A stretch of DNA of 64,000 nucleotides from Nannocystis bainbridge (GCF_028368995.1 NZ_JAQNDL010000004.1:224001-288000), one strand, 5' to 3'. Counted from the stretch's first letter, positions 2,923 through 63,070 are shown. A program made the numbers and translations. Notes: a model not told the origin generated them from the sequence alone.

Positions 2923-3002
2923 GACCCTCGAGGATATGTCTGCATGGACATGTCCTTGGGGACATTGTCCGCGCGATCCGGGCGGACCTGTCTCGGGTGA
3001 CA
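2923..3002. repeat. Array of 14-bp TGTCC-N4-GGACA-type palindromes
   Basis: Units gaccctcgaggata | tgtctgcatggaca | tgtccttggggaca at 2923-2964, plus tgtctcgggtgaca at 2989. Confidence 0.8.
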
Positions 3003-3199
3003 TGATCGGTGCACGAGCGGTCGCGGATGCTCGTGAACGCTCCGCTCGCGGCGTTCGTCGATGGCGACGGAGACGGGCGCAGCGGGGGCCGCGGGGGCGT
3101 TGCGCGATCTCGAGGGGCGGCGGCGGGCCGCGGCGGTGCGGTACCCTGGGAGGCGGAAGAGACGTCGGTGTCTCGACGATCGCGTCAGGAGATTCGACG

Positions 3200-3796
3200 A
3201 TGGTCCGGTTCGATCGCTGCGCAGCTCTCGTGTCGTGCTTCTTCGCCGCCGCGCTGGTCGGCGCCTCGCCGGCGTCCGCGGGCAAGTCGCCCAGGGCGGG
3301 CGGCCAGGACCCGAAGGGCGCCCCTGCGGCGCCGGCGGAGAAGGCCCCGCCTCCGAACGAGACTTCGAAGGATCGCGACAGCCGGGCGGCGCCGGTGGAC
3401 AAGCCCGCCGAGCCGCCGAAGACCGACGCGCCCGAGGACGGGCTCGCAGCGAGCTCCAGATCCGCGGGTGAGGCCGCGAAGGGCGGGCCTGCTGCGAGCT
3501 CCAGATCGCAGGGCTCATGCGCCGGACGGGGTGGGCTCATGAGCGCCGGATTACGGCCGCGAAGGGGCAGGGCTTGCACCGCGAGAGCGCGGGGACCCTT
3601 CGACGTCGGCGGCCGTACCCGGCCGGCCCGCAGGGGGACTCCCGGGCATCGGGTTACGAAAGCGACAGCGCGCGTGGCGTCGGACCCGCGGTTCCTGGGA
3701 CAACGGACCTCGGTCCGTCGCCTCGGGGCGTCCCGGTCCTCGATCGCGCCCTTGCGAAGGCTCGTTGCAGCGCCCCCGCGCCTCGGCCTATCTTGA
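3200..3796 (+). CDS. Hypothetical secreted Pro/Ala-rich protein, possibly a truncated remnant
   Basis: AGGAG RBS, ATG at 3200, signal-peptide-like N-terminus (…FFAAALVGASPASA) and a low-complexity linker. The C-terminal half is Arg-rich and does not look coding. Confidence 0.35.
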   Translation: MVRFDRCAALVSCFFAAALVGASPASAGKSPRAGGQDPKGAPAAPAEKAPPPNETSKDRDSRAAPVDKPAEPPKTDAPEDGLAASSRSAGEAAKGGPAASSRSQGSCAGRGGLMSAGLRPRRGRACTARARGPFDVGGRTRPARRGTPGHRVTKATARVASDPRFLGQRTSVRRLGASRSSIAPLRRLVAAPPRLGLS

Positions 3797-3800
3797 AATC

Positions 3801-5825
3801 ATGCGTGTTCGCTTTCTTGGCTTCGTCCCGCTCGGCTCCGCCCTCGCCTTGATGTCCTCCGCATGTGTCGATGATGGGCCACAGGCGACAGGTGCCACCG
3901 ACACCGCGCCGATGACCTCGATCACCGGCGTCACGGCCACGGACGCGCTGACCTCGACGACCGACCCGGGCACGACCGCGCCGACGACGACCGACGGCAC
4001 CGAGACCGGCGAGCCGTCGACCGACGCGACCTCCACGCCGACGACGACCATGAGCGGCTGCGTGCCCGACTGTCCCGAGGGCCAGTACTGCGCCGGCGAC
4101 AGCTGCCAGCCCGGGTGCGACGGCGACGAGGACTGCGTCGCGCCGGCCACCTGTGACCTCGCCGAGCACACGTGCAAGGGCTGCGAATCCGATGCAGGCT
4201 GTCCTCTGGGACAGGTCTGCAAGGACAGCGCCTGCGTGCCCGGCTGCAGCGACATGCAGCCGTGCGAAGGCGGCCTGGCCTGCTGCGCCGAGGCCTGCGT
4301 CGACCCGCTGAGCGACCCGGACCACTGCGGCGGCTGCGACCCGTGCCCGGCGCTGCCGAACGCCGAGGCCAGCTGCGCGATGGGCCAGTGCGGGCTCGGG
4401 GCCTGCGCGGCCGGCTTCGCCGACTGCGACAACAACCCCAACAACGGCTGCGAGACCCAGGGCCAGTGCCAGTGCACGCCGGGCGCCACCGAGGCCTGCT
4501 ACGGGGGCCCGGACGGCACCCAGGACGTCGGCATCTGCAAGGGCGGCATGCACACCTGTAACCCCGAGGGCACCGGCTGGGGCCCGTGCGACGGCGAGGT
4601 CTTGCCGAACGCGATCGACATCTGCAGCAACGGCCTCGACGACGACTGTGACAATCAGGTCGACGAGGACGCCGACGCCGACGGCGACGGCTGGACCGTG
4701 TGCGGCGGCGACTGCTGCGACGAGATCGGCCCGACCTGCCTCAACCCCAACCTGGTCAACCCGGGCGCGTTCGAGGTCCTCGGCAACACGGTCGACGACG
4801 ACTGCGACGGCATGCCGGACAACGCGATCCCGGCGTGCGACGGCGGCCTCCCCAGCAACTCGAGCGACGCGCTGCAGTACGCCCGCGCCATCGACCTGTG
4901 CCAGTTCACCACCGAGAACCCGCCGATCCAGGAGAAGAAGTGGGGCGTGATCTCGGGCGGGTTCAGCCGCTCGAACGGCGCCGGCGCCCCGGCGGCCGCG
5001 GCCAAGTCGATCCGGCCCGGCTTCGGCACCGTGCTGGTGCCGCAGAAGAACGCCAGCCTGGCGGTGCTGTCGACCGGCCACGCCGCCGACTCCAACGACG
5101 CGAGTCCGGCCTTCTCGGCGTTCCAGGGCGGCACCCAGCTCGGCACCTCGGCCGCCGTGCCGGCCGACTGGCTGGCGGCCAACGGCAACAACTTCCCCAA
5201 CGCGCCCGGCTGCCCGGCGCCGCAGGGCGGGGCGACCGGCCAGGACACGATCCAGCTCAAGCTGCGGGTCCGCGTGCCGACCAACGCGCTATCGTTCAGC
5301 GCCCACGTGTACTTCTTCTCGAGCGAGTACCCCGAGTGGGTGTGCAGCCCGTACAACGACTTCTTCCTGACGCTGGTCGACGGCCAGGGCGTGGGCAACC
5401 CGGCCGACAAGAACGTCGCCATCTACAAGAACCAGAACAACCAGCTGTTCCCGCTCGGCGTCAACATCCTCAAGGGCGCGCCCGGCCTGTTCGCGCAGTG
5501 CAAGAACGGCCAGATCAGCTGCGGCTCCCCGCCGGCCAACAATTACAACAGCTGCACCGGCAACGACGAGCTGGCCGGCACCGGCTTCCACCTGCTGAAC
5601 CCGTTGCCGCAGTTCGCCGACGACCCCGGCTATTGTGGCGCCAACAATCAGGTCGGCGGCGGCACCGGCTGGCTCAAGATGTCGGGCAACGTCAAGCCCG
5701 GCGAGACGATGGAGATCCGGTTCGTGCTGTGGGACACCGGCGACCCGTGGTACGACTCGCTGGTGCTGCTCGACAACTTCGAGTGGTCGCTGCAGGCCTC
5801 GGAGCCCGGGGTCAAGCCCGGCTGA
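3801..5825 (+). CDS. Cys-rich lipoprotein with MopE-like metal-binding repeats and a C-terminal choice-of-anchor L-like domain
   Basis: Lipobox MSSAC, Thr-rich linker, Cys-rich repeats (DPDHCGGC), motifs ICSNGLDDDCD and GNTVDDDCDG, and C-terminal FFSSEYPEWVCSPYNDFF…WDTGDPWYDSLVLLDNF. Confidence 0.85.
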   Translation: MRVRFLGFVPLGSALALMSSACVDDGPQATGATDTAPMTSITGVTATDALTSTTDPGTTAPTTTDGTETGEPSTDATSTPTTTMSGCVPDCPEGQYCAGDSCQPGCDGDEDCVAPATCDLAEHTCKGCESDAGCPLGQVCKDSACVPGCSDMQPCEGGLACCAEACVDPLSDPDHCGGCDPCPALPNAEASCAMGQCGLGACAAGFADCDNNPNNGCETQGQCQCTPGATEACYGGPDGTQDVGICKGGMHTCNPEGTGWGPCDGEVLPNAIDICSNGLDDDCDNQVDEDADADGDGWTVCGGDCCDEIGPTCLNPNLVNPGAFEVLGNTVDDDCDGMPDNAIPACDGGLPSNSSDALQYARAIDLCQFTTENPPIQEKKWGVISGGFSRSNGAGAPAAAAKSIRPGFGTVLVPQKNASLAVLSTGHAADSNDASPAFSAFQGGTQLGTSAAVPADWLAANGNNFPNAPGCPAPQGGATGQDTIQLKLRVRVPTNALSFSAHVYFFSSEYPEWVCSPYNDFFLTLVDGQGVGNPADKNVAIYKNQNNQLFPLGVNILKGAPGLFAQCKNGQISCGSPPANNYNSCTGNDELAGTGFHLLNPLPQFADDPGYCGANNQVGGGTGWLKMSGNVKPGETMEIRFVLWDTGDPWYDSLVLLDNFEWSLQASEPGVKPG

Positions 5826-5976
5826 GGCGTCGAATCACGGGACATGTCCGGGAGGTCATATCCTGTGATTGTGCGAGGCGCCCGTCGGCGGCGCCTCGCC
5901 GAGTGACTTCGGATTCGTTGTACATGTCTGAAGGGACATGGATGTCGATTGACGCTCGTCGGCGAACGCTGCCGGC

Positions 5977-14855: not shown

Positions 14856-16751
14856 CTATTGCATGAAGCAGTAGATCGGCTTCTTCCACGTGCACGATTG
14901 CTGGCAGACGAACTGCGTCCACAGGCCGTCTGCTTTATTAAACTGGCCGCCGCCGACGATGCCGGCGGCGTTGCTGGTCCAGTTCTGGCAATCGGTGAAG
15001 TTGGCGAACATCGTGCCGTCGATGATCGTGTTGGTGAAGGTGAGCTGGGAGATGCCGCCGCAGACGTTGGCGTCGGCGCCGGGCGGGGTCTTGAGCTCGG
15101 ACAGGTTGATGGCGGCGGCGTGGTTGCCGTCGACGAGGTCGTTCCAGTTGTTGGCGATGAGGACGCCGTCGCGGCGGGCGTAGGGGATCGTGGGCTTGGT
15201 GAAGCGGGTGACGGGGGTGCCGGTGTCGTCGCTGAGCCAGGCGCGGTAGGTGCCGGGGAGGCCGGCGGCCTGGGCGGCGGCCTGGCACTTCATGTCGGCG
15301 CCGAGGAGGCCGCCGAGGTTGCCGTCGAAGCCCTGGCTGGTGGCGAACACGACCTTGTGGGCCTTGCACTTCGAGCTGCAGCCATCACCCTCGGCGAGGT
15401 TGCCGTCCTCGCAGTTCTCGCCGGCGGCGCTGTTGATGACGCCGTCGTTGCAGGCGGCGAAGGTGCAGTCGATGTCGCAGGTGGCCGACTGACCGCCGTG
15501 ATCGCAGGCCTCGCCGGCGGCCTCGTTGAGGACCTCGTCGCCGCAGACGACGGCGGTGCAGTCGTCGTCGCAGGTGGCGGTCTCGAAGCCGTCGTCGCAG
15601 GTCTCGCCGGCGGCAGGGTTGACGGTCTTGTCGCCGCAGACGGCGAGGGTGCAGTCGGCGTCGCAGGTGGGGCTGGGGCCGCCGGTGTCGCAAGCCTCGC
15701 CGGCGGCGGGGTTGGGGTGGGCGTCGCCGCACTGGGACGGGGTGCAGTCGCTGTCGCAGGTGGCGCTGTTGCCAGCGGTGTCGCAAGCCTCGACGCCGGC
15801 GAGCACGAAGCCGTCGCCGCACACGGCGAGCTTGCACAGACCGGTGCAGGCGTCATCGTCGAGGTCGTTGCCGTCGTCGCACTCCTCGTCCATCTGCAGG
15901 ATGCCGTCGCCGCAGGTGGCGAGGGCGCAGTCGTTGGTGCAGGCGTCGTCGTTGATGTCGTTGCCGTCGTCGCAGGCCTCGAGCACGGCGTGCACGATGC
16001 CGTCCCCACATTCGGCAGGGATGCAGCCGACCAGGCAGTCGTCATTGTCGAGGTCGTTGCCGTCGTCGCAAGCCTCGACGCCGAGCTGCACGATGCCGTC
16101 GCCGCACACGGCGGTGATGCAGGCGTTGGTGCAGTCGTCGCCGTCCTCGAGGTTGCCGTCGTCACACTCCTCGGGGACCTGGACGATGCTGTCGCCGCAG
16201 ATGGGCAGGCGACAGCCCGCCGAGCAGCCGTCATCCTCGATGTTGTTGCCGTCGTCGCACTCCTCGCCCAAAAGCTCGTGGAGGACGCCGTCGCCGCAGG
16301 TGGCGGCGATGCAGGCGTTGGAGCAGGCGTTGAGATCGACCAGGTCGCCGTCGTCGCACTGCTCGCCCGGATCGAGCTGGCCGTCGCCGCAGATCGGCGG
16401 TTCGCCGGTGGTGCTGTCGGTGTCCGTGGTGGTGGTCGAGGTCGTCGAGGTGGTGGTCGAGGTCGTGGTGTCGGTGGTGTCGGTGACGGCGGTGTCGGTG
16501 CCCGGATCGGTGGTGGGCCCGGCGGTGGTGCCAGTCTCGGTGCCGCCCATGGTGCTGGTGGAGGTGGTGGGCAGGCTGGTGGTGGGCAGGTCAGGCCCGC
16601 TGGTGCTGCCAGCCGTGGTGGTGCCGTCGGTGTCGGTGGTGCCACCGGCAGAGTCGGTGGTGACGGCGGTGTCGGTGCGACCGCATGCGCCGAGCGCCGC
16701 GGCGAGCACGACGAGTCCCAGCGAACGACAAGCGAAGCTGTAAGCGAGCAT
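14856..16751 (-). CDS. Lipoprotein with myxobacterial Cys-rich repeats (DUF4215-like) and a C-terminal DUF1554-like domain
   Basis: Lipobox ALGAC, Thr-rich linker, more than 10 CGDG…EeCDDGN…C…C repeats, then VFATSQGFDGNLGGLLGADMKCQAAA…YRAWLSD…PIYCF. Confidence 0.88.
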   Translation of the reverse strand: MLAYSFACRSLGLVVLAAALGACGRTDTAVTTDSAGGTTDTDGTTTAGSTSGPDLPTTSLPTTSTSTMGGTETGTTAGPTTDPGTDTAVTDTTDTTTSTTTSTTSTTTTDTDSTTGEPPICGDGQLDPGEQCDDGDLVDLNACSNACIAATCGDGVLHELLGEECDDGNNIEDDGCSAGCRLPICGDSIVQVPEECDDGNLEDGDDCTNACITAVCGDGIVQLGVEACDDGNDLDNDDCLVGCIPAECGDGIVHAVLEACDDGNDINDDACTNDCALATCGDGILQMDEECDDGNDLDDDACTGLCKLAVCGDGFVLAGVEACDTAGNSATCDSDCTPSQCGDAHPNPAAGEACDTGGPSPTCDADCTLAVCGDKTVNPAAGETCDDGFETATCDDDCTAVVCGDEVLNEAAGEACDHGGQSATCDIDCTFAACNDGVINSAAGENCEDGNLAEGDGCSSKCKAHKVVFATSQGFDGNLGGLLGADMKCQAAAQAAGLPGTYRAWLSDDTGTPVTRFTKPTIPYARRDGVLIANNWNDLVDGNHAAAINLSELKTPPGADANVCGGISQLTFTNTIIDGTMFANFTDCQNWTSNAAGIVGGGQFNKADGLWTQFVCQQSCTWKKPIYCFMQ

Positions 16752-17021
16752 GCCCGCCAGAGTACGAGAGTCGCGGGAAGGCCGGCAACTCGCGCAGGCG
16801 GAGACGTATGCGGGCGAGCGGGTGCGAAGATGGCCCACCCGCAGGCGACCGGGGCGGGAAACTCCGGGCGCCGGTGAGCCAGGTGTTACGCGGACGTCAT
16901 GTCGGCGGCGAAGGGTCGGCGCGCGCGCGACGGCGGACGGGCGACCGCGCGTCGCGTGTGCGAAAGCCGAGGTCGGGTGGATGCAGGCAGGGAGCCCGCA
17001 GGAGCGCGGACAGGAGGCCGA

Positions 17022-44394: not shown

Positions 44395-44599
44395 GGCGAT
44401 CTTCGCGGGCCGCGGGTCGGCCGCGTCCCCTGCAATGCTCGCAGGCGGGCGGTCGCATCGGTGCGAGCCATGATTGCAGATCTGCGACGGGCCCGTCCTG
44501 CTCGCTGGGCGATCACGGGCGGACGGACCGCCGCGATTGTCGTCTGCCGCTCGCTGGACGGGGTATTGCCTGCGGCCATAGTTGCGGGACGAGGTGACC

Positions 44600-45020: not shown

Positions 45021-45245
45021 TGTCCTCGAGGACATGCAGCCGGGGTCGGTGCGCGCCCGGGTGAGGATGTCCTTCGGGACATCTTTTTTTCATCGGGGCG
45101 CTGCGACGGCGCCGGGTTGAGATGTCCTTCGGGACATTTTTTTGCGAGCGGGGCGCTGCGACGGCGCGGGCTGGATGTCCTTCGGGATGTCTTTTGCGAT
45201 CGGACGCTGCGACGGCGCAGGCTGGATGACCCGGAGGACATGTCT
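45021..45245. repeat. Tandem ~51-55-bp units, each with the palindrome as a GATGTCC-TTCG-GGACAT hairpin followed by a T-run (terminator-like)
   Basis: Palindromes at 45021, 45068, 45123, 45176 and 45227; shared cgctgcgacggcgc linker; located between convergent genes. Confidence 0.8.
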
Positions 45246-45263
45246 TGACGCACCCGGGCGGCG

Positions 45264-49016: not shown

Positions 49017-49547
49017 CGTCGTCCTCCTCGCGCCGGGGAGCCGGAGCGGCCGTGAAGGTGTTGGCAATGCGCGTCCAGACGCCGCGGGGAGCGGCGGGGG
49101 CTGCGCTGATCTTCGAGCTGACTATGATGATACACGTCCGTTTGAATATTGGTAGACACAAATTGCCGTGGCGCGGCGAAACAGCCCTGCCACCGCCACC
49201 CCGGTGTGGGTGCGCCGCCCGCGACCGTGCATGGCGATGATTCGTCATTGGCCACACCGGCGCACCCACGCTGTCACAGGCTTCGACCGAGGCCTCTTCC
49301 GTGGGACGCGAGGACGATGGACCCCAATCACGCCGGTGCGAGGCGCCCGCGCCGCGCGGACCCCCGGGCGCCGCCGGAGGTGCTGACGCGTGGATTGGTA
49401 GAATGTCCCGAAGGACAGGCGACGCGGGCCGCGATTTCGCCCGCGCAATTGAACCTCGACCGGTGACCCCGGTTCAACAGCGGCGCCGCGTGCTGCGATT
49501 CGCCGCGAAGAACGATGTGCGTCCGCGGCGAATCGTCGATATCGTAT

Positions 49548-51107
49548 TCACTGCAGGCGGATCAGCCGGATGTCTTCCTCGCCGACGTTGACCCACACGA
49601 GCGCGTGGATGTCGGGGAAGTACTCGAGCTTGGTCTCGGTGTTCCAGTTGACCTCGACGGGATAATCACCCGCGATCTCGGCGCGCTCGAGCGTCCAGGT
49701 GGCCTCGTCGATCCAGGCCCACAGCATGCCCTCGCCGATGGGATAGAAGTTGGTGAGGTACCGGCCGGTCTCGGCGATGTGGGCGAGGGTGCCGCCGTCG
49801 GAGCCGCCCTGCGGATCGAACATCAGCCCCTCGGTCGAAGGGCCGTAGGTGAGCTCCTGGTAGGTGACCTCGCGGGTGTCGAGATCGGTGAGGAGCATGG
49901 TGTGCGGCCGGCCGCCCTCGTACACGAGCGAGTGGAGGGCCTGACCGCGCTGATCCTGGGCGGTGCTGAGCGCTCCCCATCCGCCGATCGGGTAGCCGCC
50001 CTCCCAGCGGAATTCGCCGCCTCCGGCGAGCACCGACCACGTCTGTGATTGATTGTAGTTCTGCGTGGCCGCGACGTAGTAACGACCCTCGGCGGCGTTC
50101 CACCAGCCGTTCATGTTCTCGCCGGTGTAGCCGGTCTCCCCCGAGTAGTCGGCGGCGGCGTCGAACGGGAATTTGGGCAGGGACCAGGTCGCGGTGGCGA
50201 TGTCGTACTCCCAGTAACGGCGACAACCCATGAGGATCTTGCCGGCGTCGCCGAGCTCGGGGACGAACACGGTCGAACCATAGGTGTGGCGCGAGGTCGG
50301 GGTGCGGGTGGAGATGTCCGGGTTTTCGGGGTCGAAGAACTCGTCGCTGTACACGCCCTCGAGGTTGGCAGGGTCGTTCTCGTAGTAGGCGATGGCGGGG
50401 TTGAAGTTGGTGAAGCTGGCGCTGTACTCGGCGGGCCACTTGCTGCTGTCGCTGGGCAAGCGCTCGATGCTCCACTTCATGGCCCGTACGTCGAGCTTGT
50501 ACACGCCGTCGTTGGACGAGCCGTCGTGGCCGCCGCCGACGGTGACCCAGCCGCGCTCGCTGCCCTTGCGCGTGTCCCAGGCCATGCCGACCCAGTCGGC
50601 GAGCACGCCGTTCCAATCCTCGTTGCCGCGGTCCTCCCAGCCGGGGATGGCGGCCTTGACCTCGGCGTCGAGGGCGTCGAGCCGGGTGCCGACGACGCGG
50701 ACCCACCGGTTGAGCGGGACGGTCTGCCACGAGACGCAATTGACGCGGCCGTCGCGGTCGCGCCCGGGGGTCCAGGCGTCGCCGTCGAGGTCGCCGACGT
50801 CGTCGCCGAGGCCCCAGGCGCTGTCGACCTCCCCGTCGCAATCGAAGCCGGGCACGCCGGTGGTGCCGGTGGTCGGCTCGGGGCCGGTGGTCGGGGTGTC
50901 GGTGGTGGCGGCGCTCGTGGTGGTGCCGGTGGTGCCGGTGGTGCCGGTGGTGCCGGTGGGGAGTGGGTCCGCGGTCTCGCTGCCACCGCTGGTGCTGGCG
51001 GTCGAGGTGGCGTCGGTGCTGGCGGTGGTGGCACCACCGCCGCCGTTGCACGCGGCCGTCAATCCGAGGACCAGGCTCCACGCGCGTCGCGATGTTTCAT
51101 GGTTCAT
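49548..51107 (-). CDS. Lipoprotein with Thr-rich linker and a Kelch-like beta-propeller domain
   Basis: Lipobox GLTAAC; GGGHDGSSNDGVY and PTSRHTYG motifs; Trp-rich strands. Confidence 0.75.
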   Translation of the reverse strand: MNHETSRRAWSLVLGLTAACNGGGGATTASTDATSTASTSGGSETADPLPTGTTGTTGTTGTTTSAATTDTPTTGPEPTTGTTGVPGFDCDGEVDSAWGLGDDVGDLDGDAWTPGRDRDGRVNCVSWQTVPLNRWVRVVGTRLDALDAEVKAAIPGWEDRGNEDWNGVLADWVGMAWDTRKGSERGWVTVGGGHDGSSNDGVYKLDVRAMKWSIERLPSDSSKWPAEYSASFTNFNPAIAYYENDPANLEGVYSDEFFDPENPDISTRTPTSRHTYGSTVFVPELGDAGKILMGCRRYWEYDIATATWSLPKFPFDAAADYSGETGYTGENMNGWWNAAEGRYYVAATQNYNQSQTWSVLAGGGEFRWEGGYPIGGWGALSTAQDQRGQALHSLVYEGGRPHTMLLTDLDTREVTYQELTYGPSTEGLMFDPQGGSDGGTLAHIAETGRYLTNFYPIGEGMLWAWIDEATWTLERAEIAGDYPVEVNWNTETKLEYFPDIHALVWVNVGEEDIRLIRLQ

Positions 51108-51559
51108 GGCCCGACTGTCCCGCAGGCAGGCGGAGATCGGGCGCGGCGAGGATGTTGGCCGGCGCGGGGGCCCGGGGCCTCGCGGACGATGGTGGTGGCA
51201 CGATTGCGCCCGGCCGCAAGCGGCGGCGAATCGACGGCGCGAATGTAAGCACCGGGCATGGCCCGCGAATTGGGGCGTGACGGGTGCGGGGCGGGTGCTG
51301 CCGCAATTCCCGAGGGGGGTCGGGCGCGGGCGCATGCGTTCGCGGGGCGGAGGCGAACCCTGGCGCGGGGGCATCACAATGGGTGGAGGATCGACGGCGA
51401 GGCGAGCGCGGCGGTCGGCGCGATATCGAGGATTCGCTGTGATCGTCTCGCGCTCGCGCGTGGCGCCGGGTTGTGGGCAGGCGCACCGCGGCTAGCCTGA
51501 TCGGATGGATCCGGGGCGCGCGTGCGGGCTCGCAGCGCGGCCGGCGGCGAGGTCGAAAC

Positions 51560-53384: not shown

Positions 53385-55586
53385 TCACAGCGGGATCGAG
53401 GCGACGGGGTGGGCGAGGTCGTCGATGTGCGCGACGTGGATCATGTCGCGGGCGATCGAATAGACCCAGTCTTCCATGAACACGGACCGCTGCACCTTGG
53501 AGTTGGAGTCGGTCCACCAATTGTTACACTTGCCGCTCGCGGTCTCGGGGGTCTCCGGGGCCTCGTGCGGCACGCCGCCGAGCAGCTCGAAGCCGCCGGC
53601 GATGGTCACGCGATAGACGAGCAGGCCGCTGAAGGTCATGAGGTCGCCGAAGTCGCCGCCGCTGCCGCCGGCGCAGATCGTCATCGGCACCGCGAGCAGG
53701 TCGCGGGAGCGGAAGTAGGTGAAGGCGAGGTGATTGGTGGCAGCCTCGGAGGTGGAGCCGCGGGTGCCGATGACCTCCTTGTCGAGCACCACGGGCTGGG
53801 AGAGGTCGGTGGTGTCGATGATCTGCAGCTGGAGGCCCTCGAACCACGCGAAGTCGCCTTGATCGGCGGCGTCGTAGCCCATGGTCAGGAGGTGGTCGTC
53901 GTCGAGGATGTGCATGTAGGTCGAGAAGCCGGGGATCTTGAGCTCGCCCGCGACGCTCGGGGCGCGCGGGTCGGACAGGTCGAGGACGAACAGCGGGTCG
54001 GTCTTCTTGAAGGTGACGACGAACCCGATGTCGCCCTTGTAGCGCACGGAGCGGATGTCCTCGCTCGGGGCCAGGTGGTCGACGCGGCCCTCCTCGCGCA
54101 GCCGCGAGCCCTTCTCGCGCAGCACGATCACGGTGCTGTGCACGTCGGGGTCGGGGAGCCAGCCGCTGGTGGTGGCGACCCGCAAGGCGCCCTCGTACTC
54201 GTCCATGGCGAACTGGTTGAGGATCCGGCCCTTGACGGCGCCGCTGGCCGCGTACTCGGAGGTGGCGCCGTCGAGGGCGAACTTGTGCACGCTGGTGGCC
54301 TCGTTGACGTCGGCGGCGAGCTCGGGGAACCAGGCGGCGGACTGGGCCTTGTCGTGTCGCACGGCGAGGTACAGCGAATCCTTGGAGGCGTAGACCGGGC
54401 CGGGCCGGCTCATGATGGTGGTGGTGGCGAGGGGCGCCAGCTTGCCGACGGCGAGCGAGACCAGCGAGACGAAGGAGCGGCTGTCGCCGGTCGAGGACAA
54501 GAAGACCTCATCGCAGGCGCTGAGCGGCCCCTGCATGGTCCAGGTGACGCCGCCGAGGTGCCAGGTGTCGCGCACCGAGGGCAGGAGGTCCTTGATCGGG
54601 GCTTGCTCGATCTGCTGGAGGTTGGCGAGGCGCAGCGCCTCGAATCGCTGGAGGACGTCCTGGGTGGTGAAGCCCTGCTGGCCGAGGCCGCACCAGGCGT
54701 CGGGCAGGCTCTGGGGCCAGTAGGTCATGCCGCCGACGTCGAGCTCGGGGAACACGAGGGCGGTGTGGACGGCGTCGCCGATCCGCCGCGAGTTGAGGTA
54801 CGAGCCGTTGAACTCGATCTCGCGCACGAGGCGAGGCTTGGCCCGATCGGCGAGGTCGAGGACGGTGACGAGCAGCTTGCGGCCGTCGCCGGTGAACTCG
54901 CAATCGTAGCCGTAGGTACAGTCGGGCTCGACGGCGGCGTCGGACCAGGGATCGCTGCCGAGAGAGGGGTCGACGTACTCGAGCGAGGCGTAAATGACGG
55001 CAGTGTCGCCGTGCACGTACATCCGCTTCGGGGTGCCCTGGAGCGGGACGGAGGCGAGCTCGTGGGCCTGGTCCGCGGGCCAGGCGTCGAGGACGCGAAA
55101 GCGGCCGCCGGCGAGGATGTAGAGGTAGCTGCCGTCGTTCTTGACGAAGTCGGCCTCGTCGACGTCGGCGACCTGGGTGTTGGTTTCGGAGTAGTCGCTG
55201 GCGGCGTCGCTGCCGGTCTCCTCCTCTTCTTCTTCCTCTTCCTCCTCCTCTTCTTCCTCGCCCCAATCGCCGCAGTCGCTGGCGACGGCCTGGAGGGCCA
55301 TGGTCAGGTTGTTGTGAAGGCTGGCCTCCATCTCCTGAATGGCGGTAGCCTTGAGGGCGGTCGCCAGGTCGTCGCACGAGTCGGCGCGATCGAGGGCGGC
55401 GGCGCCCTGGCGCGGGGCGTCGGCCGGCGAGGCGTCGCCGGCGAGGGCGGGCGACGCCGGCGGGCCGAACAGGCCCTCCGCGGGCGCTCCGGCGACCGGG
55501 TCGGCAGGCGCCGGGGAGTCGCAATGGAGAGAGATTGGCGTCAGCAGCGCCAGGGTGAGTGCAGCGATTCTTCGTGGTCCACGCAT
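53385..55586 (-). CDS. Secreted beta-propeller domain protein (Beta_propel family)
   Basis: YSETNTQVADVDEADFVKNDG, ILNQFAMDEY…LRVATT and VTFKKTDPLFVLDLSDP…GELKIPGFSTYMH. Confidence 0.92.
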   Translation of the reverse strand: MRGPRRIAALTLALLTPISLHCDSPAPADPVAGAPAEGLFGPPASPALAGDASPADAPRQGAAALDRADSCDDLATALKATAIQEMEASLHNNLTMALQAVASDCGDWGEEEEEEEEEEEEEETGSDAASDYSETNTQVADVDEADFVKNDGSYLYILAGGRFRVLDAWPADQAHELASVPLQGTPKRMYVHGDTAVIYASLEYVDPSLGSDPWSDAAVEPDCTYGYDCEFTGDGRKLLVTVLDLADRAKPRLVREIEFNGSYLNSRRIGDAVHTALVFPELDVGGMTYWPQSLPDAWCGLGQQGFTTQDVLQRFEALRLANLQQIEQAPIKDLLPSVRDTWHLGGVTWTMQGPLSACDEVFLSSTGDSRSFVSLVSLAVGKLAPLATTTIMSRPGPVYASKDSLYLAVRHDKAQSAAWFPELAADVNEATSVHKFALDGATSEYAASGAVKGRILNQFAMDEYEGALRVATTSGWLPDPDVHSTVIVLREKGSRLREEGRVDHLAPSEDIRSVRYKGDIGFVVTFKKTDPLFVLDLSDPRAPSVAGELKIPGFSTYMHILDDDHLLTMGYDAADQGDFAWFEGLQLQIIDTTDLSQPVVLDKEVIGTRGSTSEAATNHLAFTYFRSRDLLAVPMTICAGGSGGDFGDLMTFSGLLVYRVTIAGGFELLGGVPHEAPETPETASGKCNNWWTDSNSKVQRSVFMEDWVYSIARDMIHVAHIDDLAHPVASIPL

Positions 55587-56081
55587 CGTGATCTCCTGCT
55601 CGAATCATCGAGCGGGGTCGAGGCGCGCGGGCGTATCAGACCGCGAGCGAGCAGCCGTTCGCCCCATTCGGCAGCGACGCGCGACCCGACCCCATTCGGC
55701 AATCGTGAGGAGGTCGGTCCTGTCGGCAAGCACGCTCGGCCACGAAAGGCGCGCGGCTGTCGTCCGGCGTACGCGTCTGCCGGCTCGCTCCTCACCGGCG
55801 GAGCGAAGGCGTCGATCTGTCGTCGAGGTCGTGTGGGATGTCCTCGGGGACAGGTCGAGAGCGGGGCGGAGAAGATGCGGAGCCGCCGCTGCGCGAGCAG
55901 GCGAGCGAGCGTCGTGGTCGGCGACGGTTCGCGTCGCGAGCGGGAGCGCGGTCGTGGAGCGCGCCTCCCCGGGTCCGCAACGGGCGTCTGGACCGGCGCA
56001 GGTAAGTGTGAGAAACATCTCAAATTAAGTGAGCCCATCCGAGAACGATTCTCGGCGAGCTCGCGACGAAGGGCGGGAACC

Positions 56082-56666
56082 ATGACCACGGGCCGCGACC
56101 CAGACCTCGACCTCTTGCAGCGCTGGCGCAGCGGCGCGGCAGCGGCCGGCAATCAATTGTGCCGGCGCTTCGAGCCGAAGCTGCGCCGCTTCTTCGCCGC
56201 CAAGGTGCAGCCCGCCGACGTCGAGGAGATGGTCCAGCAGACCTGGTTGGCGCTGACCGGGGCCTGCCGCCGGGCCGACCTGCGGCCGGAGAGCGGCGGC
56301 CTGGATGCGATTCGCACGACGTTTCGCGCGTACCTGTACGGCATCGCCCGCCACACGCTGCTCGCGTATCACCGCAAGAACTACCGCGGCGGCCGCGACT
56401 TCGATCCGGAGGTCGAGAGCCTCGAGACGCTGGCGCCGTCGCTCAGCCAGCAGCTGTCGCTGCAGCGCCGGGTCAAGCAGCTCGAGCTGGCGCTGCGGAG
56501 CCTGCCGCTCGAGCTGCAGCTGTTGACCGAGGCGCGCTACGTCGAGGAGCTGTCCGGTCCGGAGCTGGCGGAGATGTTCGCGCTGCCCGAGGGCACGGTG
56601 CGCTCGCGCCTGTCGCGGGCGCGACGCTTGATGGACGAGGCGCTCGAGCGCCTGGAGCGGAAGTAG
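56082..56666 (+). CDS. ECF RNA polymerase sigma factor
   Basis: DLDLLQRWRSG…LRRFF…VEEMVQQTW…FRAYLYGIAR (sigma2); ELAEMFALPEGTVRSRLSRAR (sigma4). Confidence 0.92.
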   Translation: MTTGRDPDLDLLQRWRSGAAAAGNQLCRRFEPKLRRFFAAKVQPADVEEMVQQTWLALTGACRRADLRPESGGLDAIRTTFRAYLYGIARHTLLAYHRKNYRGGRDFDPEVESLETLAPSLSQQLSLQRRVKQLELALRSLPLELQLLTEARYVEELSGPELAEMFALPEGTVRSRLSRARRLMDEALERLERK

Positions 56667-56674: not shown

Positions 56675-59494
56675 ATGCGCGAGCCGGAGCCCATCACCGA
56701 GCACGACAGCGGCGCGAGCGATCGTTTCATGCGCCTGTTCGCCGAGCACCGCGAGCAGGCCGCGACCGCCGATGCGTCGGCCGGGGGTGCCTTCGATTTC
56801 CCGGCCGAGGACGTCGCGGCCTTCAGCGCGCTGATCGGCGACCGCTACCGGATCGAGCGCGAGCTCGGACGCGGCGGCATGGGGGTCGTCTTCCTCGGCC
56901 ACGACCATCGGCTCGAGCGCTGCGTCGCGCTCAAGGTGTTGCCGCGCGCGCACGGCGAGAGCGCGGCGCATCAGCGCCGATTCCTGCGCGAGGCGCGGAC
57001 GGTGGCCAAGCTGTCGCACCCCCACATCGTGCCGATCCTGCACGCCGAGGAGGCCGGGCCGTTCGCCTACTTCACGATGGCCTACGTCGAGGGCGAGACG
57101 CTCGCCGAGCGGATCCGCCGCGCAGGTCGCATGCCGGTCGTCGAGGTGGTGAAGGTGCTGCGCGAGGTCGCGTGGGCGCTGGCGTACTCGCACGCGTGCG
57201 GGGTGGTGCACCGCGACGTCAAGCCCGAGAACATCCTGCTCGAGCGGGCCACGGGCCGCGCGCTGGTGTCGGACTTCGGCATCGCCCAGCAGGTCGGCGA
57301 CGCGGGCATCACCGGCGCCGATCACCTGGTCGGCACGGTCCTGTTCATGAGCCCGGAGCAGGCGCAGCGCGTCGAACTCGACGGGCGCAGCGATCTCTAT
57401 TCGCTGGGGGTGGTCGGCTTCTGGCTGCTGTCCGGCAAGTATCCGTTCGCCGCCGACACGGCGCTGGCGTCGTTGCTGCAGCGCGTAAATCGGCTCGCGC
57501 CGCCGCTGCGCTCGGTCGCCCCCGATGTCGCGCCGGCGATCGCGGCGGTGATCGATCGCTGCCTCGCGCGCGCGCCGGACGACCGCGTGCGCAGCGGCGA
57601 GGAGCTGGCGGAGGCGCTCGAGCGGGCGCTGCACGGCGAGCCGAAGAGCGGCCGCGACGAGCGTGCGCTGGGCGAGGCCGAGATCGGCGCGGCGCTGCTG
57701 CAGGCCGCCGAGCTGCGGCGGATGCTCCGCGAGCACGCGGAAGCGCCGGCGCCGATCGACCGGGTCTGCCGCGCGCTGGGCGAGCAGCTCGGCGTGCCCG
57801 GCGGCGTGGCGATCGACCTGTTCGAGCGGCTCGCGCTCATGTGCCCCGGCGACGCCGACGACCTGCGCGTGCTCGCTGCGGCGCACGGGCAGCTGTTGCC
57901 AGATCCGCAGCATTCCACGGCCGCCGACCTCGGCGCCATGTTCGCGACCCGGGACGACGCCTCGCTGTTCGAGCGGCTGCTCGGCCTGAGCCGCGGCTTG
58001 CCGCTGCACCACCCGCTGGTCCAGCGCCTGCATCTGCTGGCCGCGCGCGTGCGGGCGCATCGTGACGGGGCCGACGACGGCGAGGTCGCGGCGCGCTTGT
58101 TGCTCGAGATCCGCGACCTCGCCGCGCGCCTGCTCGAGCTGCGGCGCGAGGGCTTTGGCGAGCCGGTCGTCGACCACGAGAGCGCGACGCTCGGGCTCTA
58201 CCAGGAGGTGTTGGCGGAGGTCCGCCGCAACGACGGCGTGCGGGCATCGAAGCGGCTCCTGGACCTCGCGCGGGTGCGTGGGGCCTCGCGCTCGCAGCTC
58301 GCGGCGGTCGGCGCCCTCGCCGAGCAGGCGAGCCAGCACGCCGGCGTTCATGCCGCCCGCGGGAGCGACGACGCGTGGTTCGCCTTGCTGGCCGCGCTGC
58401 TCGAGTCGGCCGGCAGCCTGGTGTCGGCGGGTCCGGACGAGCTGGCGATCACCGCGCGCACCGACGAGCTGCGACGCGGCGACCTGCAGAGGGCGCGGCG
58501 ACTGTTCCTCGCGCGCCGCGGCGAAGAGCCTCCGCGAGCGAGCGACGCGATCTTCGTCGCCGAGGCGGTGGGCAAGTCGTACGGCCGCCGCAACCGCGCC
58601 GCCGATCAGGTGCTGGGCGACGTCTCGCTGGCGCTGCATCCCGGGACCATCACCGGGGTGGTCGGGCCCAACGGCTGCGGCAAGACCACGCTGCTGCGGA
58701 TCGTCGCCGGCCAGCTCGCGCCCGATGTCGGCCGCGTCGCCTATCCGCGGCTGGATCCGCCGGGCGTCGCGCGCGGGACGACCGACTGGCAGCGGGTGCT
58801 GCCGCAGATCGGCTACGTCGCGCAGCGCCCGGAGCGGTGGTTCGGCGGCCTCGGCGACAACCTGCACCGCTGGGCCGCGCTGCACGGGGTGGTCGGCGAG
58901 GACAACGCGATCGAGGTCGAGTTCTACCTCAACCGCCTCGACCTGCTGCGTTACCGCGACGCCCAGTGGCACGAGCTGTCGGGCGGCTATCGCATGCGCT
59001 TCGAGCTCGCGCGCGTCATGGTCGCGCGCCCGCGCCTGCTGGTGCTGGACGAGCCGCTGGCGCCGCTCGACATCAATTCGCAGGAGACCTTCCTGCGGGA
59101 CCTCCGCGACCTCGCCGACATGGACGGGCAACAGCTGCCGATCCTGCTCAGCTCGCAGCACATCGTCGAGGTCGAGTCGATCGCGGACACGCTGTTGTGC
59201 CTGCACCAGTCGGGTCGGCCGCGCTTCTGCGGCCCGGCCCGCGCAGTGGCGGGTCGCGGCGACGAGCGGGTGTACGAGCTCGGCGGCGCGATCTCGCAGG
59301 ACCTGCTCGACGCGGTGCGCCAGCAGTTCGCGCTCACGGCCCATCGCGCGGGCGAGCGCTGGATCGTGCGAGTGCCGGCAGATGTCCCGGAGGACAGGTT
59401 GCTGCGGGCGCTGCTGGCCCGCCACGGCAGCGTCGATTACTTCCGCAACATCACGCAATCTTGCGTGCGTTTTTTCAGGGGAGATGCGTCATGA
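56675..59494 (+). CDS. Hanks-type Ser/Thr kinase fused via a helical region to an ABC-transporter ATPase
   Basis: AGGAG RBS. Kinase motifs LGRGGMGVV, VALK, HRDVKPEN, DFG, GTVLFMSPEQ and DLYSLG; ABC motifs GPNGCGKTT, YVAQ, LSGGY and LLVLDEP. Single uninterrupted frame. Confidence 0.9.
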   Translation: MREPEPITEHDSGASDRFMRLFAEHREQAATADASAGGAFDFPAEDVAAFSALIGDRYRIERELGRGGMGVVFLGHDHRLERCVALKVLPRAHGESAAHQRRFLREARTVAKLSHPHIVPILHAEEAGPFAYFTMAYVEGETLAERIRRAGRMPVVEVVKVLREVAWALAYSHACGVVHRDVKPENILLERATGRALVSDFGIAQQVGDAGITGADHLVGTVLFMSPEQAQRVELDGRSDLYSLGVVGFWLLSGKYPFAADTALASLLQRVNRLAPPLRSVAPDVAPAIAAVIDRCLARAPDDRVRSGEELAEALERALHGEPKSGRDERALGEAEIGAALLQAAELRRMLREHAEAPAPIDRVCRALGEQLGVPGGVAIDLFERLALMCPGDADDLRVLAAAHGQLLPDPQHSTAADLGAMFATRDDASLFERLLGLSRGLPLHHPLVQRLHLLAARVRAHRDGADDGEVAARLLLEIRDLAARLLELRREGFGEPVVDHESATLGLYQEVLAEVRRNDGVRASKRLLDLARVRGASRSQLAAVGALAEQASQHAGVHAARGSDDAWFALLAALLESAGSLVSAGPDELAITARTDELRRGDLQRARRLFLARRGEEPPRASDAIFVAEAVGKSYGRRNRAADQVLGDVSLALHPGTITGVVGPNGCGKTTLLRIVAGQLAPDVGRVAYPRLDPPGVARGTTDWQRVLPQIGYVAQRPERWFGGLGDNLHRWAALHGVVGEDNAIEVEFYLNRLDLLRYRDAQWHELSGGYRMRFELARVMVARPRLLVLDEPLAPLDINSQETFLRDLRDLADMDGQQLPILLSSQHIVEVESIADTLLCLHQSGRPRFCGPARAVAGRGDERVYELGGAISQDLLDAVRQQFALTAHRAGERWIVRVPADVPEDRLLRALLARHGSVDYFRNITQSCVRFFRGDAS

Positions 59495-60765: not shown

Positions 60766-60826
60766 TGGCTCACGAAGCTGCGCGCCGCGGCGGCCCGAAA
60801 CGGCGCGCCGCGGCTCGCTGCTGTGC

Positions 60827-62800
60827 TCAGGGCGTCTTGCAGATGTACGGCCGCGGCGAGTCGCAGGGCAGGTCGTTCCACAGGCCGGCGGACCAGGCGG
60901 GGAGGTTGGCGCAGTCCTCCTCGCCGGCGTTGTTGGGCTCGCCCTCGTTCCAGGCGGTGAAGCCGAGCGCGGTGCCGTCGGTCCACACGAAATCGTCCTC
61001 GCTGGCGATGTCGTTGAGGCCGATCCACCAGTCGCTGTTGGCGACCATGAACGCCTCGGCGGCGGCCCAGTCCTGGGTGGCCTGGTCGGGGATCGACAGC
61101 AGGTGGCCGCCCTGGGTCACGCAGTCGGCCTCGGCCTGGGCGAAGGGCAAGGCGACGAAGCAGAGCTGGGCGGTGCCGGGGCCGGGCAGGTCCTTCTCGA
61201 CGCAGTGGGGGCACAGGGGGTCGTCGTCCCAGACGCCGTCGCAGTCGTCGTCGTCGAGGTCGCAGGCCTCCTGGGCGCCGGGGTGGACGTCGGGGTCGTT
61301 GTCGTCGCAGTCGTCGGTGCAGGCGGAGAAGCCGTCGCCGTCGAGGTCGACGTCGCTGGGGATCGTGCAAGCGAGGCCGGCCTGGACAGAGGCGGCGCGC
61401 TGCATGAAGAAGGCGACGTTGCCGGCGATCTCGTTGGTGTTGTCGCCGTCGCTGCACTCCTTGCGCGGGTCGGCGGCGACGGCCGGGGCGATGCTGGCCC
61501 CGAGCTCGGCGGCGGCGCCGGCGAGGTCGAGGGCGTCGACGCGGGCGAGCACGTGGTCGAAGCTGTCGGCGAGCTGCTCGCGGCACGGCTGCGAGGCGGC
61601 GCACATCTGCGCCAGCCGCCCGTCGCCGCCGAACGGGTCGAGGTGGTCGCGCAAGATCTGGTCGATGCCCCACGGCATGAAGGTCCACAGCGCGCCGTCC
61701 TCCTGCGGGCGATGGACGTAGTAGTTGTTGCGGGTCCAGGCGTAGCCGTCCCAGTGGCCGAGGTAGATCTCGGTGGCGGCGAAATCGAGGTAGCGCCCGA
61801 GGTCGAGGACAGCGGCGACGTCGCTGGTAAAGGCGGCGGGGTCGAGCATGCCGTCGAGCGCGGTGGCGAAGTCGTAGAGGTCGGCGAATTCGAGGTCGTC
61901 GCCGTTGTCCTGATCGAAGGAGGGCACGAGGTCGGTGCGGATGTCGCTGCCGTAGGCGCCCTCGTAGATGCTGCCCTTGTCGCTGCCGTACCAGTGGTCG
62001 AGGTAGGGCTCGTTGTCGACGGACTCGACGGCGGTGTAGAGGCCGTAGGGCTCGCCGTTGACGCGCACGACGACGTGGCCGGCGCGGGGGGCCGCGATGC
62101 CGACGTCGCGGAAGAGCGAGTAGCCGAGGATCTCGCGCTGCATGCTGCAGTCCTGGACCATGTTGTTGACGGCGAGCTTCTCGAGGCCCAAGAGCCGCTG
62201 GTCGTCGACGTTGCGGTCGAAATTGAGGAGGAAGGCGGCCTTCTGATCGAGGGTGCGATAGGAGCCGTAGTTGCCCTTGAGGCGCACGCCGATCTCGGTC
62301 AGCTCGTAGACCTGGCCGTCGATCTTGGCCACGAGGTCGCCCTTGGTGTACTTCTTGCCATCGGCGTCGAGAGCGGCGATCGCCTCGTCGGAGAGGGTGA
62401 GGTCGAACTCGGCCATGGCGCCGAAGGCGAACAGCGGCTCGGCCTCGAGGTAGGGGTCCGGATCGCCGGTGGTGCCGCTGGTGGTGTCGGGTTCCTGCGT
62501 GGTCGCGGTGGCGTCGGTGGTGGTCGCGGTGGTGGTCGACGTCGCGTCGGTGGTGCTGGTGGTCACCGCGTCGGTGGTCGAGGTGTCGGTGGTGCCGGTG
62601 GTCGGGACGTCGGTGGTCGAGGTGGTGGTGCCGGGAGTGCCGGTGGTCGGCGCGGTCTCACTGGCGTCGGAGGTGGCGTCCGTCGTGGTGGCGTCGGTGG
62701 TGGTGGCGTCCGTGGTGGCGTCGGTGGTCTGAGCCGTGGGGCTGGTGCAGGCGGCGGCGAGGAGGAGCGGGACGGAGCGGTAAACGGCAGTGCGGGCCAT
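60827..62800 (-). CDS. Lipoprotein: CotH-type atypical kinase, MopE-like repeat and C-type lectin domain
   Basis: Lipobox LAAAC; CotH motifs IGVRLKGN, LAVNNMVQD, VRVNGEPYGLY, HWDGY…NNYY and FMPWGID; DCDD…HPGAQEACDLDDDDCDG; CTLD WIGLND…EPNN…EDC…WNDLPC…YICK. Confidence 0.9.
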   Translation of the reverse strand: MARTAVYRSVPLLLAAACTSPTAQTTDATTDATTTDATTTDATSDASETAPTTGTPGTTTSTTDVPTTGTTDTSTTDAVTTSTTDATSTTTATTTDATATTQEPDTTSGTTGDPDPYLEAEPLFAFGAMAEFDLTLSDEAIAALDADGKKYTKGDLVAKIDGQVYELTEIGVRLKGNYGSYRTLDQKAAFLLNFDRNVDDQRLLGLEKLAVNNMVQDCSMQREILGYSLFRDVGIAAPRAGHVVVRVNGEPYGLYTAVESVDNEPYLDHWYGSDKGSIYEGAYGSDIRTDLVPSFDQDNGDDLEFADLYDFATALDGMLDPAAFTSDVAAVLDLGRYLDFAATEIYLGHWDGYAWTRNNYYVHRPQEDGALWTFMPWGIDQILRDHLDPFGGDGRLAQMCAASQPCREQLADSFDHVLARVDALDLAGAAAELGASIAPAVAADPRKECSDGDNTNEIAGNVAFFMQRAASVQAGLACTIPSDVDLDGDGFSACTDDCDDNDPDVHPGAQEACDLDDDDCDGVWDDDPLCPHCVEKDLPGPGTAQLCFVALPFAQAEADCVTQGGHLLSIPDQATQDWAAAEAFMVANSDWWIGLNDIASEDDFVWTDGTALGFTAWNEGEPNNAGEEDCANLPAWSAGLWNDLPCDSPRPYICKTP

Positions 62801-63070
62801 GACCCGCGACGGTACGCCGACTGCAGACGGGTGGGAGGGTCGGCGTTTGCAGGTCCAGGGGCCGCGAGGGCGTGAGGGACGTGCTGGCCGGGGTTCCGCG
62901 GGGATCGAGGCGCTACGCAGGCGCGGCTCGGCGCTGTCCTTCGGGACATGTTGCGGGCGGCCGAGGGGCGAGAGAGCGCGCGGGCCGGGGCTGCCTCTCG
63001 GGACAGGTCATGGGGCGGGGGCGAGCCGGGGACGGCGGCTGTCTCTCGGGGCAGGTTGGGGCCGCGCGGG

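Follow-up and report, generated by a model that had tools for sequence, protein, structure and literature searches.

A stretch of 64,000 nucleotides from Nannocystis bainbridge (GCF_028368995.1, NZ_JAQNDL010000004.1:224001-288000) was surveyed for a short palindromic repeat, TGTCC-N4-GGACA, which occurs between and within its genes both as single copies and in arrays. The whole stretch is called the window throughout, and positions are counted from its first letter. The repeat unit is 14 bp long and is made of TGTCC, four free bases and GGACA. An exact count of the motif gave 15 perfect copies in the window, with start positions 2951, 4200, 22867, 28159, 34870, 35443, 38243, 39513, 45021, 45068, 45123, 49404, 55839, 59383 and 62935, and these are exactly the positions given by the initial annotation, which had been made from the sequence alone; the mismatch copies which it quoted at 5845, 5925, 21198, 41251 and 46921 are all present as well. 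With up to two mismatches allowed, 76 such 14-mers were found (15 perfect, 19 with one mismatch and 42 with two), and the two-mismatch copies outside arrays are estimated to be mostly at about chance level.

The palindrome family is real and very abundant in the window. In 100 dinucleotide-preserving shuffles the mean was 0.03 copies with a maximum of 1, and the number of 15 was reached in none of them. Markov models of orders 1, 3, 5 and 6, which were trained on the window itself and simulated 150 times per order, gave means of 0.05, 0.03, 0.13 and 0.11 copies with a maximum of 2, so that the enrichment over chance which had been proposed from a rough estimate persists against models up to order 6. 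The excess is limited to the spacer of four bases, at which there are 15 copies as against 0–1 at each other spacer from 0 to 11, and it amounts to 162-fold over the expectation from pentamer frequencies. The palindrome is extended by one base on each side (ATGTCC-N4-GGACAT) in 9 of the 15 perfect copies.

The genes were called by a rough caller of our own based on third-position GC and were checked with Pfam. The units and their surroundings in the window, where ORF stands for open reading frame, are as follows.

2937-2964: doublet of a one-mismatch and then a perfect unit, in a spacer, 143 bp behind a CsbD gene; a weaker unit lies at 2989-3002
4200-4227: perfect unit and two-mismatch unit inside the Cys-rich ORF 3765-5825 (plus strand), read in a deviant frame and of uncertain membership
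5845-5858 and 5925-5938: two single one-mismatch units in a convergent spacer, 20 and 39 bp behind the two stop codons
21198-21276: two degenerate units, at 21198 (one mismatch) and 21263 (two mismatches); a block of about 65 bp is duplicated here, and each copy holds one of the units
22853-22922: five-unit array in 14-bp register with a 28-bp super-period, which takes up the gap between two genes on the minus strand
28159-28172: perfect single unit in the TPR gene 27917-32746 (minus strand), about 85 codons before the stop, read as ..V-L-R-D-T..
33996-35456: at least six arrays of 3–6 units in the low-complexity N-terminal part of ORF 33285-37505 (plus strand), including the perfect copies 34870 and 35443; the arrays lie at 33996-34088 (42-bp period, equal to three units or 14 codons), 34564-34633, 34842-34883, 34996-35051, 35236-35291 and 35401-35456
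38243-38270: doublet of a perfect and then a one-mismatch unit with reverse-complementary centres, the 28 bp together being an almost perfect palindrome; it lies 4 bp past the stop of ORF 37505-38239 (plus strand) in a 66-bp convergent spacer
39443-39526: array of six units in exact 14-bp register within a convergent spacer; between its end and the stop of ORF 39536-40402 (minus strand) there are 10 bp
41251-41278: two degenerate units (one and two mismatches) inside the Sulf_transp-like gene 41035-41466 (minus strand), in the usual coding frame
42887-42928: three-unit array in a tandem spacer, adjoining a 36-bp tandem repeat of 3.3 copies
45021-45254: five dispersed units at 45021, 45068, 45123, 45176 and 45227, three of them inside a 55-bp tandem repeat of 3.1 copies
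46921-46934: single one-mismatch unit inside ORF 46427-47032 (minus strand), in the usual coding frame
49404-49417: perfect single unit within a tandem spacer, 131 bp downstream of the stop codon of ORF 49548-51377 (minus strand), with a hairpin of -7.3 kcal/mol
55839-55852: perfect single unit, 253 bp upstream of ORF 53385-55586 (minus strand)
59383-59396: perfect single unit in the kinase-ABC gene 56675-59494 (plus strand), 37 codons before the stop, read as ..D-V-P-E-D-R..
62935-63053: one perfect and two two-mismatch units at distances of 57 and 48 bp, in the tandem spacer flanked by ORFs 60827-62800 and 63071-63910 (both minus strand)

Some of these sites are accompanied by other repeats. 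The 36-bp tandem repeat at 42713-42833 (98% matches) lies directly to the left of the array 42887-42928, and a short minus-strand ORF could begin at a unit-junction ATG by this array and run through the repeat. In the 55-bp repeat (45065-45228) every copy holds a unit with a TTCG centre, a run of T and a second GC-rich hairpin. This repeat sits behind a small Cys-rich ORF on the plus strand (44582-44962, 127 amino acids, third-position GC 0.89), over which the gene caller chose a doubtful minus-strand ORF. The ORF 33285-37505 encodes 1,406 amino acids and comprises about 2.3 kb of low-complexity sequence rich in Gly, Ala, Arg, Pro and Glu followed by a weak HEAT-repeat match, and it also contains 42-bp and 39-bp periods which are not built of the unit.

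Distribution among genomes and anatomy of the unit

The genomes of 185,579 species were scanned with the perfect doublet (20 specified bases) as the query, and 49 loci were found, of which 32 are from Nannocystis, 14 from Mesorhizobium and 3 are single loci from unrelated metagenome-assembled genomes (MAGs). The survey of related genomes which the initial annotation had suggested thereby placed 32 of the 49 doublet loci in nine Nannocystis assemblies, namely N. punicea, N. pusilla, N. exedens, N. radixulma, strain RBIL2 and four MAGs. The related loci were taken with 2 kb on each side; they were selected for holding a perfect doublet, and their flanks are not a random sample of the genome. Further perfect copies are present in the 2-kb flanks at 16 of the 32 Nannocystis loci, and at none of the 14 Mesorhizobium loci outside their own long palindrome. 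The family is genus-specific to Nannocystis, a soil myxobacterium, and is present in all the Nannocystis genomes matched; the doublet scan gave no locus from sister genera. Five proteins of the window belong to clusters formed at 90% identity, and three of these clusters contain proteins named from N. punicea, N. pusilla, N. exedens or N. radixulma, which places the window itself in Nannocystis. Six doublets lie between 1.8 and 11.4 Mb of the 11.9 Mb of N. pusilla and six between 4.4 and 12.2 Mb of the 13.2 Mb of N. punicea, that is, they are spread along both near-complete chromosomes and are not confined to one region. The density in the window (15 per 64 kb) would extrapolate to about 3,000 copies per genome of 12–13 Mb.

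The Mesorhizobium matches were rejected as members of the family, as they belong to a different palindrome of 48 bp which contains the doublet by coincidence and has no other copies nearby. This perfect palindrome has C-rich and G-rich outer arms and is found, for example, at L003:1991-2038, twice at L034 with the two copies 67 bp apart, and at 12 other loci, many of the 14 loci being mutually orthologous. Among the single matches, L043:2001-2043 (an Acidobacteria MAG) is an isolated set of three units with one unit shifted by a single base, and L009:108-135 (a Desulfobulbaceae MAG) is an isolated perfect 28-bp palindrome in DNA of 46% GC.

The units stand singly or abut head-to-tail, and the unit junction GGACATGTCC is then itself palindromic; the arrays of the window have 2–6 units each. 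The arrays of exact 14-bp period reported in the initial annotation were recovered at 39443-39526 (six units), 22853-22922 (five) and 42887-42928 (three). For the statistics of register and centre the window was pooled with the 32 related loci. Distances below 43 bp between non-seed neighbours are 14, 28 or 42 bp in 13 cases and have other values in 3 (P about 6e-11). Among the 113 perfect copies of the pooled set there are 65 different centre tetramers and 11 self-complementary centres, in agreement with the earlier description of the central four bases as freely variable and often not self-complementary.

The arms behave in another way. When four pairs are at the consensus the fifth pair is also at the consensus in 113 cases, and a single-sided variant is found in a handful; an arm-pair covariation test revealed almost no compensated pairs (three G..C at the outer pair, otherwise 0–1). 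As compensatory changes are essentially absent, it is the sequence of the arms that is constrained and not merely their pairing, and a purely structural constraint on RNA or on single-stranded DNA was therefore dropped as an explanation of the arms. A position profile and a test of 7-mer enrichment indicated no longer conserved element around the unit beyond the neighbouring unit, and an asymmetric head or flank (GTAG-like) which would give the unit an orientation is absent, the arms being exact mirror images.

The heptamer GGACAGG, a G-rich variant of the right flank of the unit, occurs 25 times on the plus and 4 times on the minus strand of the window, which follows the GC skew, and 10 of the 25 occurrences come from the paralogous repeats at 34–35 kb. 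A strand polarity of the unit was considered on this ground and is treated as not significant. The GC skew is 0.05–0.16 in 14 of the 16 bins of 4 kb and 0.016 and -0.005 in the bins between 4 and 12 kb, with genes on both strands.

Gene context, coding copies and turnover

Copies of the unit concentrate in spacers which contain the 3′ end of a gene, above all in short convergent ones. By the ORF caller, 12% of the window is non-coding, and this part holds 9 of the 15 perfect copies. Of the 32 doublets 12 lie in convergent, 4 in tandem and 1 in divergent spacers, and 15 overlap a called ORF; among the latter four are 3–33 bp from a stop codon, several are near doubtful starts and three are clearly internal. 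The convergent share of the intergenic doublets (12 of 17) compares with a baseline of 32 among 124 spacers (P 1.4e-4). The nearer stop codon is at most 16 bp away in 9 of the 12 convergent doublets (26 bp in the widest case), and the convergent spacers are often barely longer than the doublet itself, as in the 39-bp gap between trpA and a PRA-isomerase gene at L026. The density of the 47 non-seed perfect copies is 2.56 per kb in convergent spacers, 1.28 in tandem spacers, 0 in divergent spacers and 0.145 in coding DNA, so that spacers with a 3′ end are about 9–18 times denser in the motif than coding DNA. In the 3.7 kb of divergent spacers no non-seed perfect copy was found where 5.9 were expected (P 0.003); in the window, copy 55839 would be the sole divergent-spacer copy if the doubtful ORF 56025-56372 (minus strand) is not a gene. 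A recurrent gene beside the arrays was also looked for and given up, the proteins upstream of the doublets at L010 and L013 being mutually unrelated.

A minority of the copies lies, to judge from the translations, in frame within permissive loops of proteins. The coding frame is GTC CNN NNG GAC A(TG TCC NNN NGG ACA), which gives V-x-x-D and D-M-S-x-G-T, and it is shared by 5 of the 6 coding sites examined in the window and by both translated internal doublets (SMC and CoaBC), the exception being the Cys-rich repeat at 4200. The ORF 33285-37505 with its many arrays has coding-like third-position GC throughout. The three clearly internal doublets are in the SMC hinge, in the CoaBC linker between the Flavoprotein and DFP domains, and in an interdomain gap of an IucA/FhuF protein. 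At the CoaBC position, in an alignment of the query with 30 of the 120 matches listed, 8 of the 31 sequences have [DN]-M-[ST]-x-x-T, 9 have a diverged form and 14 have none. The Pfam match to the SMC hinge is about 29 residues longer than the profile, and in the alignment of the query with 27 of the 120 matches listed (28 sequences) the hinge loop carries 1–3 modules in 21 of the 22 closest homologues and none in the six most distant, which include proteins named from Enhygromyxa, Pseudenhygromyxa and Paraliomyxa. We do not claim a 42-bp block size for insertions into coding sequence, as there is a single 42-bp period of units (33996-34088) and the CoaBC and SMC alignments have other lengths.

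The junction GGACATGTCC contains an ATG on both strands (for example at 22872-22881 and 62944-62953) and the arrays are open in all frames, therefore ORF finders can start genes inside arrays. Two ORFs of this kind in the window are given below. The arrays are thus likely to be a source of wrong gene starts and false extensions in the annotation of Nannocystis.

22204-22881 (minus strand): ORF starting inside an array
62948-64000 (plus strand): ORF starting inside an array

Differences in unit number were seen between orthologous loci. The loci L020 (N. pusilla), L021 (RBIL2) and L028 (N. exedens) are orthologous and 93–97% identical, and the N. pusilla locus is longer than the other two by about 185 bp, which hold further units. 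One unit of this set retains its arms in all three species while its centre is GGGT, CGCA and GATA, and in a second spacer of the same set a 77-bp duplication bounded by units is present in N. pusilla only. In the pair L036/L048 (85% identical) the doublet behind an SPFH gene is retained, and its first centre is TGCG in one locus and GGGA in the other. L048 alone has a third unit behind this gene. The two centres of a doublet are identical in 4 of the 32 doublets (0.24 expected, P 1e-4) and reverse-complementary in none, from which it follows that doublets arise by direct duplication of the 14-bp unit and not by inverted duplication. Tandem repeats of which each copy holds one unit are found at 45065-45228 in the window and also at L010 and L027.

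As RNA, a single unit folds into a 5-bp stem with a 4-nt loop (-7.3 kcal/mol, z-score -2.3), and in arrays neighbouring GGACATGTCC junctions can pair with each other and form stems of 10–12 bp with about -22 kcal/mol (z -3.5 to -4.0 for the 12-bp stems). The doublet 38243-38270 gives -22.4 kcal/mol, the six-unit array 39443-39526 gives -42 kcal/mol (z -3.8) and the five-unit array 22853-22922 gives -46.5 kcal/mol (z -5.5). A run of T follows merely 2 of the 34 copies with at most one mismatch, and in a scan of the region 36–50 kb for intrinsic terminators the sole passing site was the copy at 45063-45086; the three units within 45068-45189 have a TTCG centre and a T-run. With so few T-runs and one passing site, the family as a whole was rejected as a set of intrinsic terminators. 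The Rfam covariance models gave no match at gathering thresholds over the whole window.

A Y1_Tnp or other transposase domain was searched with Pfam in the 44 predicted proteins of the window and in 108 of the 113 ORFs within 2 kb of the 32 doublets, the five left out being orthologues of scanned ones, and none was found among these 152 ORFs. For the window this agrees with the earlier remark that no cognate gene is evident there.

Interpretation and comparison with known systems

Taken together, these data argue that the units probably form a family of short palindromic repeats which is specific to Nannocystis and belongs to the repetitive extragenic palindromic (REP) or bacterial interspersed mosaic element (BIME) kind, with in-frame copies reminiscent of the Rickettsia palindromic elements (RPEs). 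The initial annotation had left the choice between a self-propagating REP-like unit and a site of a nucleoid or segregation protein. The former proposal gained support, the units being mostly extragenic, tied to 3′ ends, arrayed, variable in number, restricted to one genus and present as in-frame copies. The latter received no positive support, given thousands of copies, doublets distributed chromosome-wide, avoidance of divergent spacers and copies in coding loops; this class of site was set aside on the extrapolated number of about 3,000 copies as against tens, and on the spread of doublets over most of two chromosomes.

Slipped-strand mispairing would make the arrays grow and shrink, and the pairing of one GGACATGTCC with the next GGACATGTCC could be a natural substrate for such gain and loss of units. 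A putative trans-acting protein would read the arms as sequence, either in the hairpin or in duplex DNA, and would keep them letter-perfect. The same putative protein could seed new loci, for which the REP-associated tyrosine (HUH/Y1) transposase (RAYT) is the precedent, none having been seen here. Copies may persist behind genes because insertions there would be least harmful, and multi-unit arrays may serve both convergent transcripts as 3′ stem-loops.

Several points weigh against this REP-like reading. The centre is near-random, and a copy-and-paste element should transfer its own centre, so that copying is not demonstrated as the means of dispersal; turnover of units explains the differences between arrays and does not explain the origin of isolated units with unique centres. 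The unit is shorter than the classical REPs, is fully symmetric and is without a conserved asymmetric head or flank. Several units are kept in position across species of 85–97% identity, and mobility is therefore slow at best. In the analysis of arm variation, perfect copies outnumber the one-mismatch variants, which fits selection for a host function equally well as a selfish element. The absence of a transposase from the 152 ORFs is weak evidence either way, since one or a few such genes are expected per genome, and the gene contexts rest on the rough GC3-based caller, of which the stops are reliable and the starts are not.

It is on account of the free centre that some room is kept for two other accounts, and these and the REP-like one are not mutually exclusive. 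A rather unlikely one is that an abundant dimeric protein which binds duplex DNA (nucleoid-associated, an insulator or roadblock between convergent genes, or recruiting a topoisomerase) uses the units as operator-like sites, each monomer reading one GGACA arm across the free 4-bp centre and arrays loading several dimers. The symmetric 5-bp arms with their centres 9 bp apart and a free centre between them suit such a protein, as do an arm sequence kept without compensatory pairs, the predominance of perfect over degenerate copies as under purifying selection, and the convergent placement, which would fit a barrier to read-through or to the build-up of supercoils; host proteins bind the REP/BIME elements of E. 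coli as well. Its difficulty is one of number and place. The extrapolation to thousands of such 20-bit sites in a genome (15 per 64 kb) goes far above every known set of specific binding sites, and the in-frame copies in the SMC and CoaBC loops and in the IucA/FhuF gap are hardly what point mutations selected for binding would produce; unit number differs among orthologous loci, divergent promoter spacers are without units, and the doublets extend along both near-complete chromosomes without being limited to a single region. Somewhat less likely still is that the units act mainly in RNA, as 3′-end stem-loops which terminate or stabilise transcripts, their symmetry serving both convergent transcripts and the repeat family being a by-product. 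The nearness to stop codons in convergent spacers speaks for this, together with the array stems of 10–13 bp (-22 to -46 kcal/mol, z -3.5 to -5.5) and the units of 45068-45189 with TTCG centre and T-run, one of which passed the terminator scan. It is opposed by the single unit, which is a 5-bp stem of -7.3 kcal/mol and z -2.3 only, by the T-run after just 2 of 34 copies, by the lack of Rfam matches and by the copies within coding loops; compensatory and G-U variants would be expected to be common if nothing but pairing counted and are almost absent, and RNA structure does not demand identical arms everywhere.

That there is no element at all, and that the motif results from composition, codon usage or a recurring motif of proteins, is hardly credible. 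The coding copies do share one frame with G or C at third positions, and short palindromes are plentiful in high-GC genomes, but the 15 copies stand against 0.03–0.13 in shuffles and Markov models of orders 1–6, the excess is confined to the spacer of four bases, 9 of the 15 copies fall in the 12% of non-coding window DNA and the motif recurs in nine independent Nannocystis assemblies. The shuffles and Markov models, the spacer specificity and this recurrence refute such an origin. A further idea, which is possible and which we regard as doubtful, is that the units are the sites of a Nannocystis-specific arm-reading protein, neither a known REP transposase nor a nucleoid protein, acting at thousands of gene ends. 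Such a protein would bind the GGACA arms in duplex DNA or in extruded hairpins as a bidirectional boundary, for termination, insulation or relief of supercoils between convergent genes. The arms would stay perfect and the units would be renewed through the action of this protein, with no master element being copied, by which the free centre would be explained. If true, this would amount to chromosome-wide punctuation of a new kind.

With regard to the REP-like reading, the family was compared with the systems it resembles. It shares with the REP and REPIN–RAYT systems of Pseudomonas and Enterobacteria (REPINs being REP doublets forming hairpins) the short hairpin-capable palindromes, hundreds to thousands per genome, which are mostly extragenic, lineage-specific, clustered and vertically persistent. 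As in REPs, the unit is a stem-loop palindrome in high copy number, dispersed and mainly extragenic, and its 14 bp are at or below the lower size limit of REPs. REPs are about 20 nt or longer with an asymmetric orienting flank and a conserved loop, whereas the Nannocystis unit is symmetric with a free centre. In a REPIN the mobile unit is made of two inverted REPs around a spacer which form one long hairpin, while Nannocystis neighbours abut in 14-bp register. Parts of a report on P. fluorescens (PMC3337134) describe its REPs as palindromic cores of 14–15 bp within REPs of roughly 20 nt, extragenic and RAYT-dependent, and mention that no two REPIN spacers are identical. Identification of the present family with REPINs was rejected, as none of the 32 doublets has reverse-complementary centres and in the window 38243-38270 alone has them. 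It was likewise rejected as a miniature transposable element with inverted repeats (MITE), the unit being 14 bp, as against a MITE body of 50–500 bp between terminal inverted repeats, with no conserved body or flank and no target-site duplications, and the centres being direct repeats in only 4 of the 32 doublets.

The BIMEs of E. coli are arrays of REPs behind genes which vary in unit number between strains, are bound by host proteins and can stabilise the upstream mRNA. The Nannocystis arrays resemble them in being palindromic units behind genes in variable number. They are unlike them in structure, for BIMEs alternate two REP types in opposite orientation with linkers of tens of bases, and the Nannocystis arrays consist of identical symmetric units with shared borders and no linker. 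HIP1 of cyanobacteria is a highly iterated palindrome of 8 bp, GCGATCGC, which is about equally frequent in and between genes and forms no phased arrays. Both are very short, perfectly conserved, hyper-abundant and lineage-specific palindromes with no known transposase; the Nannocystis motif differs in being phased in arrays and denser in 3′ spacers than in coding DNA. The chromosome-organisation sites, namely the Noc binding sites (NBS), matS of MatP, the SlmA binding sites (SBS) and parS of ParB, are palindromes of 13–16 bp read by dimeric proteins, with tens of sites per genome and a regional bias. These are alike in being short palindromes of this size, and unlike in having no phased arrays, no tie to 3′ ends and no insertion into protein loops. 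The RPEs of Rickettsia are described in a review (PMC10969869) as palindromic elements of about 150 bp, which occupy intergenic sites and also lie in frame within conserved genes unrelated to one another, where they add a peptide to the protein. The in-frame presence in conserved genes is shared, the Nannocystis module D-M-S-x-G-T being found in the SMC hinge and the CoaBC linker. RPEs form ten families with a conserved peptide each, while the Nannocystis unit has 14 bp of which one third are free bases, and the number of units per loop is variable; the likeness to RPEs is functional only, with their size and sequence unmatched.

From all the systems compared, the Nannocystis family differs by its symmetric 14-bp unit, free centre, shared borders and strict register. 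Such an unusually small symmetric unit seems not to have been described before, and the initial view of the motif as undescribed holds in so far as no description of it was found in the literature on myxobacterial motifs, on palindromes and repeats of Nannocystis and on RAYT or REPIN together with Myxococcus. Few bacteria have genomes as large as those of myxobacteria, whose punctuation is poorly understood. In each Nannocystis genome the family probably accounts for thousands of sites. It marks the ends of genes, those of convergent pairs in particular; it makes the DNA locally unstable, as units are gained and lost and unit-bounded stretches are duplicated in tandem; and it adds short peptides to loops of proteins that are essential, SMC and CoaBC among them. 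It may serve as a clean system for the question of what keeps repeats uniform, whether a transposase, gene conversion or a host protein, and in practice it can be used as a genus-specific signature for binning and typing.

The window also has longer repeats of other kinds. A 138-bp tandem repeat at 20001-20670 (4.9 copies, 91% matches) lies in ORF 19983-20792 (minus strand), which has no Pfam match, and repeats of 93, 186 and 189 bp are found at 15402-16358 within the DUF4215/endostatin-like gene 14856-16838 (minus strand).

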